Shown: one piece after another, positions 46,220-53,656 of the stretch | How the letters are laid out: each line of letters starts with the position of its first letter | Position numbering within the stretch: position 1 is the first letter of the stretch | Assembly: GCA_046570105.1 (NCBI GenBank) | Contig: JBKHVI010000013.1 | Location: 1-53,656 of the forward strand | DNA: 53,656 bases | Source of the DNA: Bacteriovoracia bacterium | GTDB taxonomy: Bacteria > Bdellovibrionota > Bacteriovoracia > Bacteriovoracales > Bacteriovoracaceae | Direction of reading: 5' to 3' | Notes under the pieces: model-generated | The model's input: only the letters and a program-made list of their open reading frames with translations | What the model was told of the DNA's origin: nothing | Database searches by the model: none | Made by a program: the position numbers and the translations under genes

Positions 46220-46296
<77 letters not shown>

Positions 46297-46520
46297 CTTC
46301 TTTTAAAAATATTTTTCTTAAATTCAAAAAATCGATCTAACTCTTTTTAATCATTTAACTCGAAGTTTTCATTTGGGATTTCAGAAAATCCGCCTTACAT
46401 CACTCGACATGACCGGAAATTTCAACTTTTGGCTTTATCGTGGCTTCGATTTGGCTTAGGTAAAAATCTTCAGACTGTCACTTCACCTAATCCATCTTCA
46501 AAGGGCCTTCAACCATTAAG

Positions 46521-46579
46521 GATCATTGAGCTACTCTATCCAGTCGGAGGTTCGATCTCCATTGGAAGTAGCTGTGATC
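46521..46579 (+). other. Long RNA-like hairpin in the leader of the XRE gene
   Basis: gatca/tgatc, agctact/agtagct, tccagt/attgga and ggagg/tctcc stems; TTCGA loop. Confidence 0.6.
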
Positions 46580-46593
46580 AGAAAGGATATGTT

Positions 46594-46932
46594 ATGGCAC
46601 CAAGATCAAGTTTTCGTATTGTGACAGATGACGTTCGCGCCATCAGGGTTTTAAGGGAAAAGAAAAGGCTCTCAGTGAACAGAGCTGCACCTCTGATTGG
46701 AACGAATAAGTCCACCCTTACGGCATTAGAGAATGGACGAATCAACCTCTCTCAGGTGTGGATTGAGAAAATTATCAAGGGTTATCGGATAAGCTGGGAG
46801 GAGTTTGAGCAATTGAAGCAGCAAAGACTATCTTCAAAGGAAACTGTTCTTGAAGAAATCCGGAATGAAGCTGCCAAGCTCAGTTATGAGAAGCTTCAGA
46901 CGATCCGACAGCTTCTTATTGGTTTTCAATAG
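46594..46932 (+). CDS. XRE-family HTH regulator
   Basis: LREKKRLSVNRAAPLIGTNKSTLTALENGR; RBS aaagga. Confidence 0.85.
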   Translation: MAPRSSFRIVTDDVRAIRVLREKKRLSVNRAAPLIGTNKSTLTALENGRINLSQVWIEKIIKGYRISWEEFEQLKQQRLSSKETVLEEIRNEAAKLSYEKLQTIRQLLIGFQ

Positions 46933-46973
46933 TTAGCCTCAGATTGGCCGTACAAACTTTTTACAGTTCGTCA

Positions 46974-47000
46974 TCCCCTGTGAAGAAATTTCATGGGGGA
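46974..47000 (+). terminator. Hairpin after the XRE gene
   Basis: tcccctgtgaa/ttcatggggga. Confidence 0.5.
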
Positions 47001-47090
47001 CTATTTAAAAATTCTAAGAGCCGTAAACTAAGGCGAAAGAATTATTAACAACATGATGGTTTTAACCATTAGAATTCAAACAGGAGATTT

Positions 47091-47432
47091 ATGAAAAAAC
47101 TATTAATTGGTTTATTGGTGCTTGGATCATTTTCAACTTTTGCCCAAACCTGTGATGAAAGTATTGACCTTCTTGTTAGTGTTTCAAACTCACAAGGCGG
47201 CTCTGAAGCACTCTTAGTCATAAACAACGCGAATGCTGAAAAATTTCAAGTCTTTAAACGTACACTCGAAACATACCCACAAGCACAAGAAATTGGTGGG
47301 TATTCTAGAGAATCTCTAGAAGTTGCAATTCAAGAGAACAACGAATCAATTGCTCGTTTGAAAAGTAATATTAAGAAAACTAAAGAGCTGGTTGTAACAT
47401 TGAAGCAAGGGATTAAAGATACATGTAATTAA
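47091..47432 (+). CDS. Secreted helical cargo protein
   Basis: Signal peptide MKKLLIGLLVLGSFSTFA, terminal Cys pair, RBS aggag. Confidence 0.8.
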   Translation: MKKLLIGLLVLGSFSTFAQTCDESIDLLVSVSNSQGGSEALLVINNANAEKFQVFKRTLETYPQAQEIGGYSRESLEVAIQENNESIARLKSNIKKTKELVVTLKQGIKDTCN

Positions 47433-47488
47433 TGTCTAGGTTGAAACGCTAACCACGAAAACAAATGTAAAAGAAATCAACTTAAATT

Positions 47489-47511
47489 AGGCTGGCCACA
47501 AAGGTCAGCCT
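47489..47511. terminator. Bidirectional terminator candidate
   Basis: aggctggcc-acaaa-ggtcagcct between convergent genes. Confidence 0.6.
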
Positions 47512-48725
47512 TTTAATTTAAGCTCGGATTCCTCTGCCTTTAAAAGCAAGTAATCTTGATGCTCCTTTTCGATGTATTCCTCCACGGCTTCTTGTTCGTC
47601 TTCATCTTCAAGATCTTCAAGATCGGTATAGGCCTGATAACGGAACATATAATTCATGGTGGACTCATAGATCCATTTTTTGATTTTATGCTTATCTTCT
47701 TTGGAGAGGGCTTTTTCCTGAAAGGTCGGGATTTCAATCTCGATTTTTTCGTCGTTGGATAATATTTGATAAAGTGGTGCCGGCTTGATGGTGTTTTGTG
47801 CTGGTAGAGGCATTCTTCGTCTACGAGTTGGAAACTCTGGATAAAGGGAGCCAAGTTTTTTATAGGCCCAATGTAAGCGTTCTTTGTAGGAGTCAACGCT
47901 GATTCCCAAAACTAAGGCATTTTCCTCTTGAGTAGGTTTTTCATCAGATTCATAAAACCATTCAAGCATCAGAGCATCACTCTGGGCCTCTGTTAATTTA
48001 TCCCATATCCGGTGAAACCGCTTTGCCCAGAAGGGCATTTTCTTGTGAACCTTTGCCCAGATGGCGTTTTTAGTAAGCTCAAACCGCTTTGGGGTGTATC
48101 GAGGCCAGATTTTTTTGATTTCTCTTGGAAGATCAATTCGGTGATAAAAACAGGTGGCGAGGTTTTGAATATCGTCTGACTCTTTATCAAAGTCACCTCT
48201 AGTGTACATGGTTTGAAAAAATGAGTCCTGCAAATTTTCAGGACCAGAAGAAAAGAAAGCTGCTACTGATGAGCTGGCATAACCTAGGGCATCCGGAAGA
48301 TACTCTCGAAAAGCCTCATCTTTTGATGAACCTTTTTTAAGTTTTCGGTCATTGTCACGCTTGTCGGTAAGAAGATCAGGAGTAAAATCTAAAAAACTCT
48401 CTATGCTTGTGGGTGTGCCATCATCCTCAAAAATTTCAGCATTAAGATTCTGCACGGACTCCACACCTTCGAATAAAACTTCAAGTCCCCCGACCTCGCG
48501 GGTTTCGTACCGGATAAGGTTTTCTTGGATGAGAATTTCTTCTAAGGGGAGGCAGCCTTGAAAGGCAGAGGTTTGTGATCGAAGAAAGTGAAGAGTGCCA
48601 GAAGATTTTGGCCTTAAATAGCCATTTTCAATTTTGCAAGTAGCCAGACATTCACAGCGAGAAAATCCAAAGGTAGAATCTCCTTTCTTTTCACATGGTT
48701 TAGCGATTTGTGCTCGTACCTTCAA
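47505..48725 (-). CDS. Hypothetical protein with a Cys-rich N-terminus and a sigma-70 region-4-like HTH
   Basis: WDKLTEAQSDALML...TQEENALVLGISVDSYKERLHWAYKKL; TTG start after gggag (ORF extends to 48740). Confidence 0.65.
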   Translation of the reverse strand: MKVRAQIAKPCEKKGDSTFGFSRCECLATCKIENGYLRPKSSGTLHFLRSQTSAFQGCLPLEEILIQENLIRYETREVGGLEVLFEGVESVQNLNAEIFEDDGTPTSIESFLDFTPDLLTDKRDNDRKLKKGSSKDEAFREYLPDALGYASSSVAAFFSSGPENLQDSFFQTMYTRGDFDKESDDIQNLATCFYHRIDLPREIKKIWPRYTPKRFELTKNAIWAKVHKKMPFWAKRFHRIWDKLTEAQSDALMLEWFYESDEKPTQEENALVLGISVDSYKERLHWAYKKLGSLYPEFPTRRRRMPLPAQNTIKPAPLYQILSNDEKIEIEIPTFQEKALSKEDKHKIKKWIYESTMNYMFRYQAYTDLEDLEDEDEQEAVEEYIEKEHQDYLLLKAEESELKLKG

Positions 48726-48853
48726 ACGATAAGCTCCCAAAAAATTTATTTCTTAGAATAAGTTTATCAGGTGTAAGAATTTTTTAAAAATTATTTTGGG
48801 TGAGAATTATCAAAGGCTTAAAGAGAAACTAACCCCATAAAGGTTCCTATATA

Positions 48854-49071
48854 TAGAGGCCGTGTTTTATTATTGGATGGGGAGTTTGTTTGGAATCTTT
48901 TCGACGAGATTTCCTTTTACTTTAGCAGAAAAAAAACTTTTTGCAAGTTATTTCTCTAAATCCCTATCACGTTTTCATTCTGGATATGAACTTTAGCCAA
49001 GGAGAATTTAATTTTCCCTGAATGAGAATGCCTGTCTTTTCCCCCCATCCAAAAATGTACACGACCCTCTA
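48854..49071 (+). ncRNA. Candidate structured RNA or 5' leader
   Basis: Long closing stem 48854-48882 / 49043-49071 enclosing several hairpins; G-U pairs favour the + strand. Confidence 0.5.
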
Positions 49072-49117
49072 AACACACATGGACAATTTCGCCCATGTTA
49101 TTTTTTTAGGAGGGCGC

Positions 49118-49561
49118 ATGCCTGATTATTTTCTCCCCTGTACTGATCGTATCCGTGAATTTTTTATTTCGAGTGAAGAGTTATCATCTCAAGATATCCC
49201 ATTTCTTGAAAGATTCTATGCTCGTCACTGGCCAGCTTTAAGAAAACTTAAGATTGGCGAATGTGAAGATGTCTATCTGAGTGCTTCAACTCGAGATCAC
49301 CGTTTTAACAGTAATATTAAGGCCTATCTTGGTGTTCTAGACGAAATGTCTTGGGGATTTGCCGGAAGAGGTGCTTACAACCTTTCCCTTAATCTTCTTT
49401 ATACCTACACAGTGGATAAAGAATTTGCAGAATCTCATGCCAATGAGTTCAGAAAGGATTTTTTGGAGAATATCGACAAAAAGAAGAGCTACGTCATTGA
49501 AAAATCTTTGATCCTTGATTGGATTAAAGAGAAACAAAAAGGAATTTCTTATGTCCAATAA
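49118..49561 (+). CDS. DUF6166-like protein
   Basis: EMSWGFAGRGAYNLSLNLL resembles the FEWGYxGSGPxQLAxxIL motif; RBS aggagg. Confidence 0.6.
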   Translation: MPDYFLPCTDRIREFFISSEELSSQDIPFLERFYARHWPALRKLKIGECEDVYLSASTRDHRFNSNIKAYLGVLDEMSWGFAGRGAYNLSLNLLYTYTVDKEFAESHANEFRKDFLENIDKKKSYVIEKSLILDWIKEKQKGISYVQ

Positions 49562-51089
49562 TCACAAAACCCATGAGGATAAATCTGGTCCTGACCCAAT
49601 GGCAATAGGTGGAATATTGATTGCTGTGGGTCTTGCTGGTTGGTGGACCCTAAATCAAAAGAAAATCACTGGTTGGTATGTTAATCACTATGAAGAAATT
49701 TATCTGACACTTTGGGGACTGGTTTTAGTTCTAGTGGGTTTAATCATTCATCGGTTGAATAAAAAAACTAAAGGCATTAAGGATCGTGGGGAGCTTCTCT
49801 CTCCCCACTGGAAGGAAACAAGGAAAAACATTCTAGTAGGATCAACTCATGATGGAGTTGATCTTCATCTCTCGGATGAACTTCGTTGTACTCATGTTCA
49901 GATTATTGGAACCACTGGACGAGGCAAAACTCAAAGTGTGGTCATTCCTTGGACTCTTCGGGATCTTTATCGAGGTAAATCAGTCATCCTTATTGACGGC
50001 AAAGGCAGCCGTGATGTTCCCATTAAGCTTAAGGCATCTATTGAAAGGGATAAGCTTAAAGTGTTGGTGCATGAATTTGATCTGGATAAACCGGAGGATT
50101 CAGTCAAGATTAACCCTTTGAGACTTGGAACTCCCCAGCAGATTGTAGATCGCATTTTTAGTGCCTTCGAGTTTGATGATCCTTTTTATCGAGCCGTTCA
50201 ATACGATATCTGTGGATATCTGGTGAGGCTCATTTTCGAAGTAAAGGAGGTTGTGACCTTCAGACTTCTTCATGAGCTTTTAACCGATGAAAAGATTTTG
50301 GCCGATAAGCTAAAACTCCTCCCTGATGGCCATGAACTCAGAAGACATCTTTTGGAGTTTCTTAAATCTCCAGTCAATGATCGGAAACAAAAACTCGCAG
50401 GACTTACTAGTCAGCTAGCTCCTTTTGCTACCGGTGAGATTGCAGCATTTGTTAATGGTGGAAGAAATGAAGTGGGTCTTGATGAAGTGATGGATTCAGA
50501 TAAATCAACCCAGCTTCTTATGATGTCAATCCCGACACTTAAGTATCAGAGGATTGGGCATCAGTTAGGAAAGCTTGTACTGCAAGATCTGGCCTACTGT
50601 GTGGGAGACCGAGAAGGAAAACGATATAATGAGTTCTGTTCGGTCTTTTTAGATGAGTTCTCAGAGTTTGCCTATGAAGGGTTTGTGAGTATTTTAAATA
50701 AGGCAAGATCAGCGAAAGTGGGTCTTCATCTTTCTCATCAATCCATGAGTGATTTATCAAAAGTTTCACCAGACTTTGCAAAATCGGTCATCACTAATAC
50801 CAATATCAAATGCATCCTGGGGTTAAATGATCCAGAGACTGCGGACTACTTTGCTCGGCACATGGGAACTTTTACAGAGGAGAAGTTTACTGAGCAGGTG
50901 GAAGAGGAAGGATTTTTTAAGCGTCACAAAGCTACAGGCCGAGGCTCCATGAGAGAAGTTGAGGCCTATAAGGTTCACCCAAATGACTTAAAGCGCTTTA
51001 CCCGTGGTCGTGGGGTGCTTCATGTTCCCACACCTAGAGGAAATGTTACTGAAGTCATTCAGTTTCAATCAACAGGAGGTAGGGATTGA
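49551..51089 (+). CDS. VirD4/TraG-like type IV coupling protein
   Basis: Two N-terminal TMs, HVQIIGTTGRGKT, IDGKG, VFLDEF, RSAKV..SHQS. Confidence 0.88.
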   Translation: MSNNHKTHEDKSGPDPMAIGGILIAVGLAGWWTLNQKKITGWYVNHYEEIYLTLWGLVLVLVGLIIHRLNKKTKGIKDRGELLSPHWKETRKNILVGSTHDGVDLHLSDELRCTHVQIIGTTGRGKTQSVVIPWTLRDLYRGKSVILIDGKGSRDVPIKLKASIERDKLKVLVHEFDLDKPEDSVKINPLRLGTPQQIVDRIFSAFEFDDPFYRAVQYDICGYLVRLIFEVKEVVTFRLLHELLTDEKILADKLKLLPDGHELRRHLLEFLKSPVNDRKQKLAGLTSQLAPFATGEIAAFVNGGRNEVGLDEVMDSDKSTQLLMMSIPTLKYQRIGHQLGKLVLQDLAYCVGDREGKRYNEFCSVFLDEFSEFAYEGFVSILNKARSAKVGLHLSHQSMSDLSKVSPDFAKSVITNTNIKCILGLNDPETADYFARHMGTFTEEKFTEQVEEEGFFKRHKATGRGSMREVEAYKVHPNDLKRFTRGRGVLHVPTPRGNVTEVIQFQSTGGRD

Positions 51090-51790
51090 TTAAAGCGAAC
51101 TTAAGGTTAACTATTCGTGACATAGAACTTATGAAAGATATTTATGACAATCACTTTTTAAGTTTTTATCAAATCTATGAGAAGCACTTTCCAGAGAATA
51201 AAAGACCCACTGTTTATAATCGTTTATCTAAACTCATCAGAGCTGAAATGATCAAGGCGATAAATATTAATTTAGTGGCATATCATAGAAATGGTGAACT
51301 CATAGGAGTTGTTTATGTGATGGCCAAGAATGGTTTAAGGAGTCTTCAGGATTTTAAAATGACGGAGGATATAAATCAAAATCCAGTAACCTTGAATTTT
51401 AGTTGCCTCTACCATGATTTGTTACTGACTGATGTACTGAGAGTTTTAAAAAGATCATGGAAAGTTACAAAGGTGCCTAAAGTTTCTCAAACTAGAATTC
51501 CTGACGCGATTTTAATTGATCCAGTTACAAATAAGAAAACGGCTTTAGAGTTGGAACTCACTGCCAAGTCGGAAATGCGTTATCGGGAGATCATTTTGAG
51601 TTACAGGACTAGCAGAGAATATGATTCTGTCCTCTATGTCGTAAAAGACGATTCTATCCACAAAAAGCTCGGAGGTCTTATCACAGGTTTTAATGGTCGC
51701 TTTGAATTTGGAGACAGTACCGACAAGTTTAAATTTATTACCTTGACCCAGATTTTAAATTCCTTAAAGGAGGAAAATATTGAACTTTAA
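51086..51790 (+). CDS. Replication-relaxation (PF13814-like) relaxase
   Basis: LTIRDIEL winged-helix N-terminus, HDLL, PDAIL...ALELELTAKS..RY; follows the coupling protein. Confidence 0.75.
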   Translation: MIKANLRLTIRDIELMKDIYDNHFLSFYQIYEKHFPENKRPTVYNRLSKLIRAEMIKAININLVAYHRNGELIGVVYVMAKNGLRSLQDFKMTEDINQNPVTLNFSCLYHDLLLTDVLRVLKRSWKVTKVPKVSQTRIPDAILIDPVTNKKTALELELTAKSEMRYREIILSYRTSREYDSVLYVVKDDSIHKKLGGLITGFNGRFEFGDSTDKFKFITLTQILNSLKEENIEL

Positions 51791-52034
51791 GCACAAATAT
51801 AAGTGTCGCTCGTATCTATTAAATGCTCTTGGACTTTTTTTCAGTCTAACAATGCTTCTCTATATTTATATCAAGATCAAAACTCAATTGTTACAAGGCT
51901 ATTCAGATTGGTTACCTAGAGGGTATGAACAAAATGAAATCCTCCCCCTGTATTATTGGTTCCTTCTCACGATCCCAGTGGATCTAGGAATTAGAAAATT
52001 GTTACAAGAGAACCCAAACACTGAATCAAACTAG
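51780..52034 (+). CDS. Small two-TM membrane protein
   Basis: TTG start with RBS aaggagg; two hydrophobic segments. Confidence 0.55.
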   Translation: MNFKHKYKCRSYLLNALGLFFSLTMLLYIYIKIKTQLLQGYSDWLPRGYEQNEILPLYYWFLLTIPVDLGIRKLLQENPNTESN

Positions 52035-52082
52035 AGCTTTGAGTTGATGTTTGAGTTTGTAAAAGTCTAAGTGATTAAATCT

Positions 52083-52200
52083 CTTCAATAAAATTGTATC
52101 CCCCGCCATTACCCCTTCGGCAATTTTTGCTGACCACTCCCACCCTACGTGCGGAAGTGGTCAGCAAAGCTACGGGGTAATGGCGGGGGTATTATTGAAG
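52083..52200. repeat. Nested perfect inverted repeats (cruciform, oriT candidate)
   Basis: Watson-Crick arms of 9 bp, 16 bp (52100-15/52174-89) and 13 bp (52126-38/52156-68). Confidence 0.85.
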
Positions 52201-52321
52201 AAAAAAACAAAAAAAGGAAAAAAATAAATGAATACATTAAGAGAAGAATTGAGGAAGGAAGAATTAGGAATGGATACGGGCTCTAAACAGCGAAAAACAA
52301 ACAAACAGCGATTGGGGGAAT

Positions 52322-52591
52322 ATGCCAGAAAACTTTATCAGCGGTAATTACAATCAGTCTGAAAAAGTATATAGTGAGAGCGAGCAAAAAAATGCTCAAG
52401 TGCTCTTTGAAAATTTGGAATGGGTGAACAGTGATGAAGCGGCCTTAATCTTAAGAAAGTCGGTCGGCGCGATCAGGACGGCGGTATGTCGTGGACAGAT
52501 CAAAGCGACGGTCTATAGGCGACGACTATATTTTAAGAGAAAGGATCTGATTTCCCTTTTGGAAACTTCTCCAACCAAAGGAGGTTTCTAA
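52322..52591 (+). CDS. Excisionase-like HTH_17 protein
   Basis: WVNSDEAALILRKSVGAIRTAVCRGQIKA...RRLYFKRKDL; TAATG-coupled to the integrase. Confidence 0.8.
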   Translation: MPENFISGNYNQSEKVYSESEQKNAQVLFENLEWVNSDEAALILRKSVGAIRTAVCRGQIKATVYRRRLYFKRKDLISLLETSPTKGGF

Positions 52592-53656
52592 TGGGTATTA
52601 AGTCGTATCATCAAGATGAGAAGGTGTACTGGAAAGTCTACGTTAATTTAAGAAGCAAGGTGAATCCCAAGATCAGAAAACAGAAAACTGTCTCGGGTCT
52701 TGAATCACTGGCCGCGGCACGACGAATGGAAAAGCAAGTCGTGGCGGAGCTTTCTTCAGAATTAACTTTGACGTTGGGCCGTGGTTTAACTTGGTCGAGT
52801 ATCATTGATCGTTGGGAGAAAGACGCAAAGTCAGGACTTCTTCGGCGATATGATCCGACAACTATCATGGACTTGGTGTCAGGTTTAAGAAGATGGACAA
52901 AAGAGTGGCTGGATATTCCTGGCGAGGAATTGAGTCGCTTCCACGGAAGAGAGCTTCAAAAGAAAATGGAATCGGCAGGGATGAGTTCTAAGGGACAGCA
53001 AAAAATTCGAAGCATGGTTAATACCGTTTTTAACTATGGCCTTGAAGAAAAGTTTATATCAAAACCTATTCCATCTCCAATGGCCGGATTAGTTTTTAAT
53101 ACCGATGCTGAAAAAGTTCCTGACATTCTAACTCTCGGAGAGATAAAACAATTTCTTGAAAGGGGCAAAGAACTTCAGAATGAGTGGTATCCCATTTGGG
53201 CCATGGCACTACTGACAGGGATGAGAAACGGTGAGCTTTATGCTTTAGAGTGGAGTGATGTAGATTTTGAAAACTCATTGATTAGAGTCTCAAAGTCATA
53301 TAACTCAAGGCTCAAGATCGTGAAGTCTACGAAGGCCGGTTACTGGCGGAACATTCCGATTTCAAGTCAACTTAGAGAGCTTCTGATAGGGCTTAAATCT
53401 AAAAGTCAGAGCCTACACGTGCTTCCACGTTTAGGCTGCTGGAATCAAGGTTTACAAGCGCAAGAGCTGAGAAAGTTTTTAAAAGGCATTGGGATTCGAC
53501 CGGTAAAGTTTCATGCATTGAGGGCTTGCTTTGCCACTCAGCTTTTAGCTAAAAATATCGCACCAGCAATTGTCATGAAAATCTGTGGGTGGAAGAATTT
53601 AAAAACCATGGAGTTTTATGTGAGGCTTGCGGGAGTGAGTGAGCAAGGGGCCACTG
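52591..53656 (+). CDS. Tyrosine recombinase/integrase, 3'-truncated by the window edge (absent from the ORF track)
   Basis: TGMRNGELYALEWSDVD, STKAG, FHALRACFAT, GWKN...FY catalytic motifs. Confidence 0.93.
   Translation, partial: MGIKSYHQDEKVYWKVYVNLRSKVNPKIRKQKTVSGLESLAAARRMEKQVVAELSSELTLTLGRGLTWSSIIDRWEKDAKSGLLRRYDPTTIMDLVSGLRRWTKEWLDIPGEELSRFHGRELQKKMESAGMSSKGQQKIRSMVNTVFNYGLEEKFISKPIPSPMAGLVFNTDAEKVPDILTLGEIKQFLERGKELQNEWYPIWAMALLTGMRNGELYALEWSDVDFENSLIRVSKSYNSRLKIVKSTKAGYWRNIPISSQLRELLIGLKSKSQSLHVLPRLGCWNQGLQAQELRKFLKGIGIRPVKFHALRACFATQLLAKNIAPAIVMKICGWKNLKTMEFYVRLAGVSEQGAT

Follow-up and report, generated by a model that had tools for sequence, protein, structure and literature searches.

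A conserved, covarying structure at the head of a MOBC-type mobilisation operon: a candidate cis-acting 5' leader RNA in the Bdellovibrionota

The window analysed here is a stretch of 53,656 nucleotides (nt) from a Bacteriovoracia bacterium. It corresponds to contig C13 of a Bacteriovoracaceae-like genome that is 88% complete and comprises 131 contigs (3.0 Mb), and it includes a compact integrative mobilisable element spanning positions 46220-53656, from a tRNA-Arg gene to the contig end. The subject of this study is a structured stretch at 48854-49071, within the 378-nt gap between a divergent gene for a 411-amino-acid (aa) protein and the gene for a DUF6166 protein. A first-pass annotation of the sequence had placed this stretch at the head of the mobilisation operon, and it does precede the genes for the DUF6166 protein, a coupling protein and a MobC-type relaxase (49118-51790, + strand). 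The same annotation had proposed a new non-coding RNA or regulatory leader acting with the divergent sigma4-like protein or with the DUF6166-like protein, or alternatively a single-strand origin. As described below, the site holds an element of ~290 nt that is real, conserved, covarying and biased toward the sense strand of the operon.

The element adjoins a tRNA-Arg(tct) gene (46220-46296), which is followed on the + strand by genes for an HTH_31 regulator (46429-46932, Pfam) and, from the list of open reading frames (ORFs), a 113-aa protein (47091-47432). The 411-aa gene (47505-48740) lies on the - strand; its true start is likely TTG 48725, behind a GGGAG ribosome site, and its product gives weak leads to sigma-70 region 4 (TIGR02937, expectation value (E) 0.0065, and atlas leads) and no sequence relative in the PDB (best E 0.041). 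Beyond the gap, the + strand encodes the DUF6166 protein (49118-49561, Pfam, E 1.7e-11), a VirD4/TraD-type coupling protein (49515-51089, Pfam), a MobC-type (MOBC) relaxase (51086-51790; PF13814 at E 1.5e-4 and NCBIfam MobC_subf at E 2.5e-11, below the curated cut-off), a small membrane protein (51780-52034, ORF list), an HTH_17 excisionase-like protein (52322-52591, Pfam) and a tyrosine integrase truncated by the contig end (52591-53655, Pfam). PF13814 is described as the MOBC relaxase superfamily (PMC5357655), with a restriction-endonuclease-like fold (PMC3424549; PMC6736028). Counted from its first TTG, the coupling-protein ORF begins inside the 3' end of the DUF6166 gene and shares 47 nt with it (49515-49561), and further overlaps join the coupling-protein and MobC genes (4 nt) and the MobC and membrane-protein genes (11 nt), which suggests translational coupling along the operon.

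In the minimum free energy (MFE) RNA fold of the + strand, a long-range closing stem, P1, pairs 48854-48882 with 49043-49071, and both arms are also supported by consensus folding and by arm duplexes. P1 encloses three hairpins: P2 (48892-48914; eight pairs, two of them invariant G-U, and a TTCGAC hexaloop), P3 (48919-48948), preceded by a conserved TTTAGCA junction motif (48922-48928), and P4 (48970-49030; 15 pairs, with the conserved loop motif AACTTTA-N-CCAAGGAG). A further hairpin, P5 (49078-49097; nine pairs, loop AATTTC), follows P1 and is itself followed by a T-run (49098-49107). Directly 5' of P1 lies a nearly invariant motif, ACCC-nn-TAAAGGTTCCTAT (48832-48850), which includes a mini-hairpin of 3-4 bp from the RNAalifold consensus (P0, 48834-35 with 48842-43). 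All the pairings named in the first-pass annotation recur at their positions in the MFE fold; its small GGAGAAT/ATTTTCC hairpin sits inside P4 and is not kept in relatives. P4 also has a Shine-Dalgarno (SD)-like AAGGAG (48999-49004), and a mini-ORF behind it was rejected, as L031 lacks a start codon there and L032 has a stop codon.

As RNA, 48854-49071 folds at -62.4 kcal/mol against -41.6 (standard deviation (sd) 4.3) for shuffled sequences (z -4.80, with none of 200 shuffles as good), so that the comparison with shuffles proposed for the original fold comes out in its favour. The reverse complement reaches -63.6 kcal/mol (z -4.84); both strands of the window copy thus fold equally well, and a single sequence gives no strand. 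The structured stretch is single-copy in the window genome. A scan of Rfam 15 found no match inside it, consistent with the earlier failure to recognise an RNA family, and the nine weak matches in 48000-50000 (E up to 10) all fall far below gathering scores.

To identify homologous copies, a search of 401 genomes from the phylum for the DUF6166 protein identified 10 with a match, counting the window genome. Pattern and tblastn scans gave seven loci in species genomes (Bacteriovoracaceae, Bdellovibrio and Oligoflexia metagenome-assembled genomes) and six in metagenome contigs; removal of duplicates left 12 full upstream regions and one 5'-cut region (L037), and a covariance model later added L049, for 14 full copies with that of the window. 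All copies share one gene order: a divergent ~400-aa protein, a gap, DUF6166 where present, coupling protein, MobC, small membrane protein, a second gap, excisionase and integrase. By arm sequence they form six lineages, A (window, L028, L029, L030, L035, L036, L038 and L049), B (L031 and L032), C (L033), D (L034), E (L039) and F (L040). A further covariance-model match, in G012 (26.8 bits), falls within an ORF and was discarded as a chance hit.

No DNA-level relative of 48741-49118 was found in 60 related genomes, where short, chance-like matches occurred (best 32 nt, E 1.6e-5), or by blastn among plasmids; viral contigs gave no match to the P2 pattern, and the MobC protein gave no tblastn match among plasmids.

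Despite differing arm sequences, P1 and the inner hairpins occupy the same site in the 14 full copies and the 5'-cut copy, across all six lineages. Covariation was counted in a MAFFT alignment of nine lineage A and B sequences (A3), with helices taken from RNAalifold. In its 60 pairs, 93.9% of the 540 cells pair, and pairing drops to 32-51% when the structure is slid by one to three columns. Both sides have changed with pairing preserved in 13 of the 60 pairs and in 28 cells, and neither value is reached by any of 500 shuffles. The compensatory pairs lie in P5 (6/9), P4 (3/15) and the two parts of P1 (4/17), with none in P2 or P3. P2 is nearly static: seven of its eight pairs never vary in the nine sequences, G-U stands at two positions in 9/9, and L049 contributes one compensatory swap from A-U to U-A. 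An alignment of 12 sequences from all lineages, also by MAFFT, was misaligned in its 3' half and was not used for counts.

For P1, covariation could be assessed without an alignment, by computing duplexes between two 40-nt segments, one that follows the GGTTYCTA motif and one that extends up to the end of the right arm. Cognate arms form duplexes of -19.8 to -38.7 kcal/mol in 13/13 loci, and non-cognate arms combined between lineages average -14.7 kcal/mol (sd 6.4, best -30.3, n=112). By this measure, covariation of the P1 arms extends to all six lineages. Single-sequence folds of L033, L034, L039 and L040 likewise show a long closing stem around inner hairpins, and a hairpin stands before the ribosome site in the folds of the first three, not in that of L040. 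The covariance model R1, whose depth (effective sequence number 1.56) is insufficient for aligning the distant lineages, scores L033 at 21 bits, L039 at 12.2 and L040 at 12.0.

Conserved primary sequence accompanies the conserved pairing. The ACCC-nn-TAAAGGTTCCTAT motif is present in 13/13 loci and in L049, the TTTAGCA junction motif is seen in five of the six lineages, and the P4 loop motif occurs in all of them. Nucleotide identity of seven homologues to the window is 79-95% in the putative promoter/operator blocks described below, 74-90% in the leader, 73-84% in the upstream gene and 55-83% in the DUF6166 coding sequence; measured in this way, the non-coding leader is no less conserved than the neighbouring genes. 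Gaps in the alignment are not multiples of three, which rules out a 44-aa ORF at 48862-48996 as coding. In four public DNA sequencing runs, contigs of relatives with at least 80% likeness cover 48750-48950, and to 49105 in one run; no relative contig in these runs, at the same likeness, covers 49108-49200.

The comparison of copies, unlike the window sequence by itself, distinguishes the strands. RNAalifold gives the + strand a consensus energy of -46.02 kcal/mol (covariation term -2.49) and the - strand one of -26.48 (+0.6); P1 is not recovered on the - strand. P1 arm duplexes are stronger on the + strand in 11/13 loci (exceptions: window and L029), and the P5 segment in 10/13 (exceptions: window, L035 and L036). 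The G-U wobbles that the first-pass annotation had read as + strand pairs in the inner stems are seen in P2, P3 and P4, and one pair in P1 (columns 32/239) is G-C in the window, G-U in five sequences and A-U in L029 and L049. In lineages A and B the selected strand is the + strand, the sense strand of the operon, and this probably holds for the other lineages as well.

Upstream of the structure, the alignment of 13 loci reveals two conserved blocks between the divergent genes: block 1 (48761-48780) and block 2 (48804-48821), the latter with -10-like hexamers on both strands. A sigma-70 scan of both strands of 48600-49250 gave a single site, at 48651-48679, outside the structure; an Frpo-type single-stranded DNA promoter was discarded, as this sole site lies outside the long stem. 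The TATATA box pointed out in the first-pass annotation does adjoin the region (48848-48853), but it cannot be the -10 element of a transcript that contains the whole outer stem, because covarying P1 pairs start at 48855; across lineages, only its TAT is conserved. The 48832-48850 motif could be part of the leader, or a binding site for a protein or a sigma factor. On the - strand, the same motif reads like an extracytoplasmic function (ECF)-type -35 element (GGAACC), ~19-20 nt from a TATAAG-like hexamer in block 2, and the two may constitute the promoter of the divergent 411-aa gene.

The 3' boundary is compact: P1 ends at 49071, P5 occupies 49078-49097, the T-run 49098-49107 and the SD sequence AGGAGG 49108-49113, and the ATG of the DUF6166 gene is at 49118. 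There is no room for a promoter between the end of P1 and the SD sequence, so any operon transcript would include, at a minimum, the 3' portion of the structure. P5 is present in 13/14 copies and absent in L040. A T-run of at least five follows it in 7/13 (window, L028, L029, L030, L035, L036 and L039) and is missing in L031, L032, L033, L034, L038 and L049. A terminator scan flags the P5 of L028, with 10 pairs and the tail TTTTTTAAGG, and that of L029, but scores neither the window copy, in which an A-C mismatch weakens the stem, nor L034 as terminator-like.

Alternative pairings around P5 vary among copies. The T-run can pair with the SD sequence in L029 and L035, and the P5 3' arm with a GGGCG just past the SD sequence in lineage A; these alternatives are putative and clade-specific. 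No conserved antiterminator pairing was found: lineages B to F do not preserve the candidates that visual inspection had suggested for L028 and the window. A pairing of GGTTCC (48843-48848) with the SD sequence, offered by RNAalifold, was rejected for want of covariation and is weak in L029 and L038 (GGTTTC), and a candidate antisense promoter inside the leader, in L028, was rejected since its -35 region is not conserved.

The relationship of the structure to the DUF6166 gene is clarified by L049 (G305:C53, locus 1440-1900, - strand), in which the leader and P5 stand directly before the coupling-protein gene and no DUF6166 gene is present; the same genome has a second copy with DUF6166. The leader thus does not need DUF6166 in cis, which weakens the earlier proposal that it acts with the downstream DUF6166-like protein. 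A model of that protein (pLDDT 71.6) gave no Foldseek match in the PDB at E up to 0.001, its top-ranking rows, adaptor proteins of a coupling protein, were dropped as meaningless (E 2), and no paper on DUF6166 turned up in the library searched.

Several relatives of the element differ from the window in other respects. G070 carries one beside a different tRNA-Arg gene (acg), with homology to the window beginning ~50-70 nt past the tRNA, and no att repeats of at least 14 nt were found there between the tRNA end and the integrase end. Its 411-aa homologue (L041, G070:C1, 8607-9842) is broken into two ORFs of 177 and 211 aa, which may reflect a frameshift or an assembly error. A decayed copy is found in G403:C18 (L062/L057), where the 411-aa homologue runs directly into the final 16 codons of the small membrane gene: the leader and the genes for DUF6166, coupling protein and MobC have been lost, and a downstream hairpin, the excisionase (96% identity) and the integrase (90% identity) are kept.

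Based on these data we favour, with somewhat more confidence than doubt, a new leader RNA that acts in cis at the 5' end of a MOBC-type mobilisation operon; in some members of the family, P5 would serve as a terminator or as a hairpin at the ribosome site. We infer that the leader is transcribed and that it regulates the operon, as well as the mode of that regulation. The leader (~48832-49117) would form the 5' part of the mobilisation-operon mRNA, with transcription starting within 48780-48850. The nascent + strand RNA would fold into a four-way junction, with P1 closing over P2, P3 and P4; the junction and loop nucleotides of this domain are conserved, and it would probably be read by a protein, or possibly by a small ligand. 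P5 would follow, abutting the SD sequence, and the folded domain would most likely set the amount of RNA polymerase or ribosomes reaching the first gene. In about half of the family, P5 and its U-run would act as an intrinsic terminator, leading to attenuation, and in the remaining copies P5 would be a hairpin beside the ribosome site. What stands of the first-pass proposal is the new non-coding RNA or regulatory leader, through structure, conservation, covariation, + strand bias, operon-head position and the empty Rfam scan; its dependence on DUF6166 in cis is weakened, and its possible link to the sigma4-like protein is suggested by the weak region-4 leads.

Several observations weigh against a leader RNA. 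The window copy has two A-C mismatches, C48860/A49064 in P1 and A49083/C49092 in P5, that would be G-U on the - strand, and whole-core single-sequence MFE values favour the - strand in 4/14 copies (window, L033, L034 and L040). The distant lineages cannot be aligned reliably, so that the formal covariation counts rest on nine related sequences. The sigma-70 scan found no promoter inside 48741-49117, hence none upstream of P1, and the promoter of the leader is a candidate suggested by the conserved -10-like hexamers. The missing T-run in 6/13 copies and the missing P5 in L040 imply that attenuation is not the whole story. None of the 22 listed sequencing runs that contain the stretch is an RNA run; runs with the stretch come from 16 studies in all, and most share only a small part of its sequence words. 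Finally, the site, upstream of a coupling-protein/MOBC operon, is the usual position of a MOBC-type origin of transfer (oriT).

This last point leads to the main competing explanation, in which the structure acts as DNA on the transferred strand (T-strand), and selection for + strand folding acts on that strand rather than on RNA. It could be a single-strand origin, the alternative suggested in the first-pass annotation, which would prime synthesis of the complementary strand in the recipient, or a hairpin-rich part of a MOBC-type oriT where the relaxosome assembles. We regard this explanation as doubtful, yet worth serious weight. According to a survey of plasmid oriTs, most are located in the first large gap between genes that precedes the relaxase operon, and those of MOBC type are found ~2 kb from the relaxase, ahead of the coupling-protein/MOBC operon (bioRxiv 10.1101/2024.01.30.577996); oriTs commonly contain inverted repeats (PMC5587640; PMC6414798), and oriT2 of pAD1 is located between orf53 and orf57 (PMC3084688). 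The stretch studied here occupies the first large gap upstream of such an operon, 2.0 kb upstream of mobC. Reportedly, pAD1 oriT2 (Francia and Clewell, 2002) has a large inverted repeat of ~140 bp beside short direct repeats. With DNA parameters, 48854-49071 folds at -26.4 kcal/mol on the + strand (z -3.21, one of 200 shuffles as good) and -27.0 on the - strand (z -2.95), and P1 is stable as DNA on its own. The centroid is -6.1 kcal/mol, with little remaining beyond P1: the inner helices are AT-rich, depend on conserved G-T pairs and are marginal as DNA. Neither the T-run nor the abutment on the SD sequence has a role in a DNA origin, and the nearest approach to the conserved ssoA-type hexamer is an inexact one, TAGCAG at 48923-48928.

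A far better DNA structure exists elsewhere in the element. In the gap that separates the small membrane gene from the excisionase gene, 52082-52201 forms a nested, GC-rich, near-perfect inverted repeat (arms matching 16/16, 15/16 and 10/10); as DNA, 136 nt fold at -43.4 kcal/mol (z -11.3). In the inner hairpin (52127-52167), the 12-nt arms are invariant, as is an asymmetric motif in the loop, and the outer arms of the repeat co-vary; the pattern was found in 10/401 genomes of the phylum. In G082, an element of another family whose MobC is 31% identical, the hairpin core is still identical, whereas the gap preceding the coupling-protein gene does not resemble the leader; folding of that gap favours the sense strand (z -2.50 against -0.74). 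Checkable elements with MobC identity of at least 45% (L034/L052) retain the leader, which is unrecognisable in G082. The 52082-52201 hairpin thus tracks MobC over wider divergence and behaves like a relaxase target; it is probably the oriT or nic hairpin of the element, and the leader, judged by sequence, would behave as a faster-evolving, lineage-specific regulatory part. Were the nick at 52127-52167 and the mob genes to enter last, the + strand would be transferred, a geometry that would also fit the + strand bias of the structure if it acted on the T-strand. In G403, where the mob genes are deleted, the hairpin remains with the excisionase and integrase genes.

Two further observations concern this hairpin. 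An A-rich stretch with short GAAG/AGGAA repeats lies 3' of it (52202-52275). In L050 (G389:C14) and L051 (G188:C3), the hairpin core occurs with no detectable relatives of the element proteins within 1.5 kb, and these cores may represent an orphan transfer origin or a different type of element.

A more ambitious version of the leader reading, which we consider rather unlikely, is that the four-way-junction domain represents a new class of sensor or effector RNA that times commitment to transfer in a mobilisable element of predatory bacteria. It might be a riboswitch-like or protein-binding attenuator sensing a signal from the helper conjugative element or from prey contact, or an RNA cofactor of the MOBC relaxosome, with no catalogued relative. 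A retron msr-msd RNA was rejected, since the genes downstream are those for DUF6166, coupling protein and MobC and not a reverse transcriptase.

The structural evidence for a leader would apply equally to a stand-alone small RNA (sRNA) of ~250-290 nt that ends at a P5 terminator and acts in trans or as a relaxosome or transfer cofactor, with the operon fed by read-through alone. P5 and the U-run resemble an sRNA 3' end in 7/13 copies, the conserved loop motifs suggest specific recognition, and SGI1 offers a precedent. The chance of this appears slim, however: the T-run is absent in the other six copies, no space is left for a separate operon promoter after P5 (10 nt are given between T-run and SD sequence), and the lack of an RNA run among those listed counts here as well.

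It is slightly harder still to credit the two P1 arms as a pair of double-stranded DNA operators, both bound by one protein, such as the divergent sigma4-like protein or the HTH_31 regulator (46429-46932), that would loop ~190 bp and switch the divergent promoters. The arms co-vary, as two sites of one protein would, and the site lies between divergent genes with conserved blocks nearby. However, the arms differ by bulges and internal loops, and their mismatches are mostly G-T in the + sense, P1 having 18 G-U cells against five A-C cells when G-U is counted among the pairs of the + strand RNAalifold structure. Operator pairs also leave the covariation of P2, P4 and P5 unexplained, and the consensus fold is strongly strand-asymmetric.

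A functionless chance palindrome, miniature transposable element or decaying remnant, suggested by TA dinucleotides beside both arm ends and by the single copy per element, is hardly credible: the genome holds one copy, the site is occupied in all 14 homologous elements, and conservation at least equal to that of the flanking genes, together with covariation, already contradicts it. A miniature inverted-repeat transposable element in particular was rejected on the grounds of one copy per genome and the same site in all 14 elements.

To our knowledge, mobilisable elements with MOBC-type relaxases have been little studied, and those of the Bdellovibrionota not at all. The analysis separates two structured non-coding regions of one such element, of which 52082-52201 is the probable oriT, and a leader at the head of the transfer operon would provide a concrete handle on how the element times its own transfer.

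Several known systems resemble the candidate leader in part. Structured leaders of transfer operons under attenuating or antisense control are known from the traJ 5' untranslated region of F-like plasmids (RF00243) and the prgQ leader of pCF10. Like them, the present leader lies between a divergent gene, here for a putative regulator, and transfer genes, with a hairpin or terminator that would gate expression; it differs in having no conserved antisense promoter, and the only traJ_5 match (49746-49851; 18.2 bits against a gathering score of 50) falls outside the structured stretch. Single-strand origins of rolling-circle plasmids and ICEBs1 are strand-specific, heavily folded, non-coding stretches of ~150-300 nt. 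A folded non-coding stretch, possibly strand-specific as DNA, on an element that moves as single-stranded DNA resembles them, but the leader has no exact match to their conserved motifs, abuts an SD sequence, often has a T-run, and has inner helices that need G-U pairs. With the MOBC oriTs of the CloDF13 and pAD1 groups, as far as these are described in the sources cited above, the leader shares an intergenic position upstream of the coupling-protein/MOBC operon and large inverted repeats; it is weak as DNA, the 52082-52201 hairpin tracks MobC more faithfully, and there is no nic site to compare.

That a mobilisation module can need an RNA of its own is indicated by the sgm-sRNA of SGI1 (PMC9299015). 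Likened by its description only, that RNA likewise comes from within the mobilisation module of an integrative mobilisable element, and its level is controlled by a terminator-like element. It derives from a 3' end, however, and belongs to an unrelated element whose relaxase is the tyrosine-recombinase-like MpsA.

The nearest analogue in architecture would be conAn2 of pLS20, described as an antiterminator RNA that occupies a 383-bp gap at the head of a conjugation operon, with a 238-bp centre, flanking 20-bp inverted repeats, two stem-loops and a partner protein, ConAn1 (PF17362) (PMC8191782). Compared by architecture, both are large non-coding elements in gaps of ~380 bp at an operon head, with action in cis as RNA (proposed for the leader), internal stem-loops and a long-range repeat (20 bp around 238 bp in pLS20, 29 nt around 160 nt here). 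The flanking repeat is reported as dispensable in pLS20 and is covarying here; conAn2 lies after the first gene in pLS20, as described, and the leader before it; the hosts are Gram-positive in the one case and Bdellovibrionota in the other; and a Pfam scan of the 10 ORFs covering the element found no PF17362. The leader belongs to neither the conAn nor the sgm-sRNA system, nor to any Rfam family, and would add a candidate family to the short list of large conjugation-controlling RNAs formed by conAn2, the traJ leader and sgm-sRNA.

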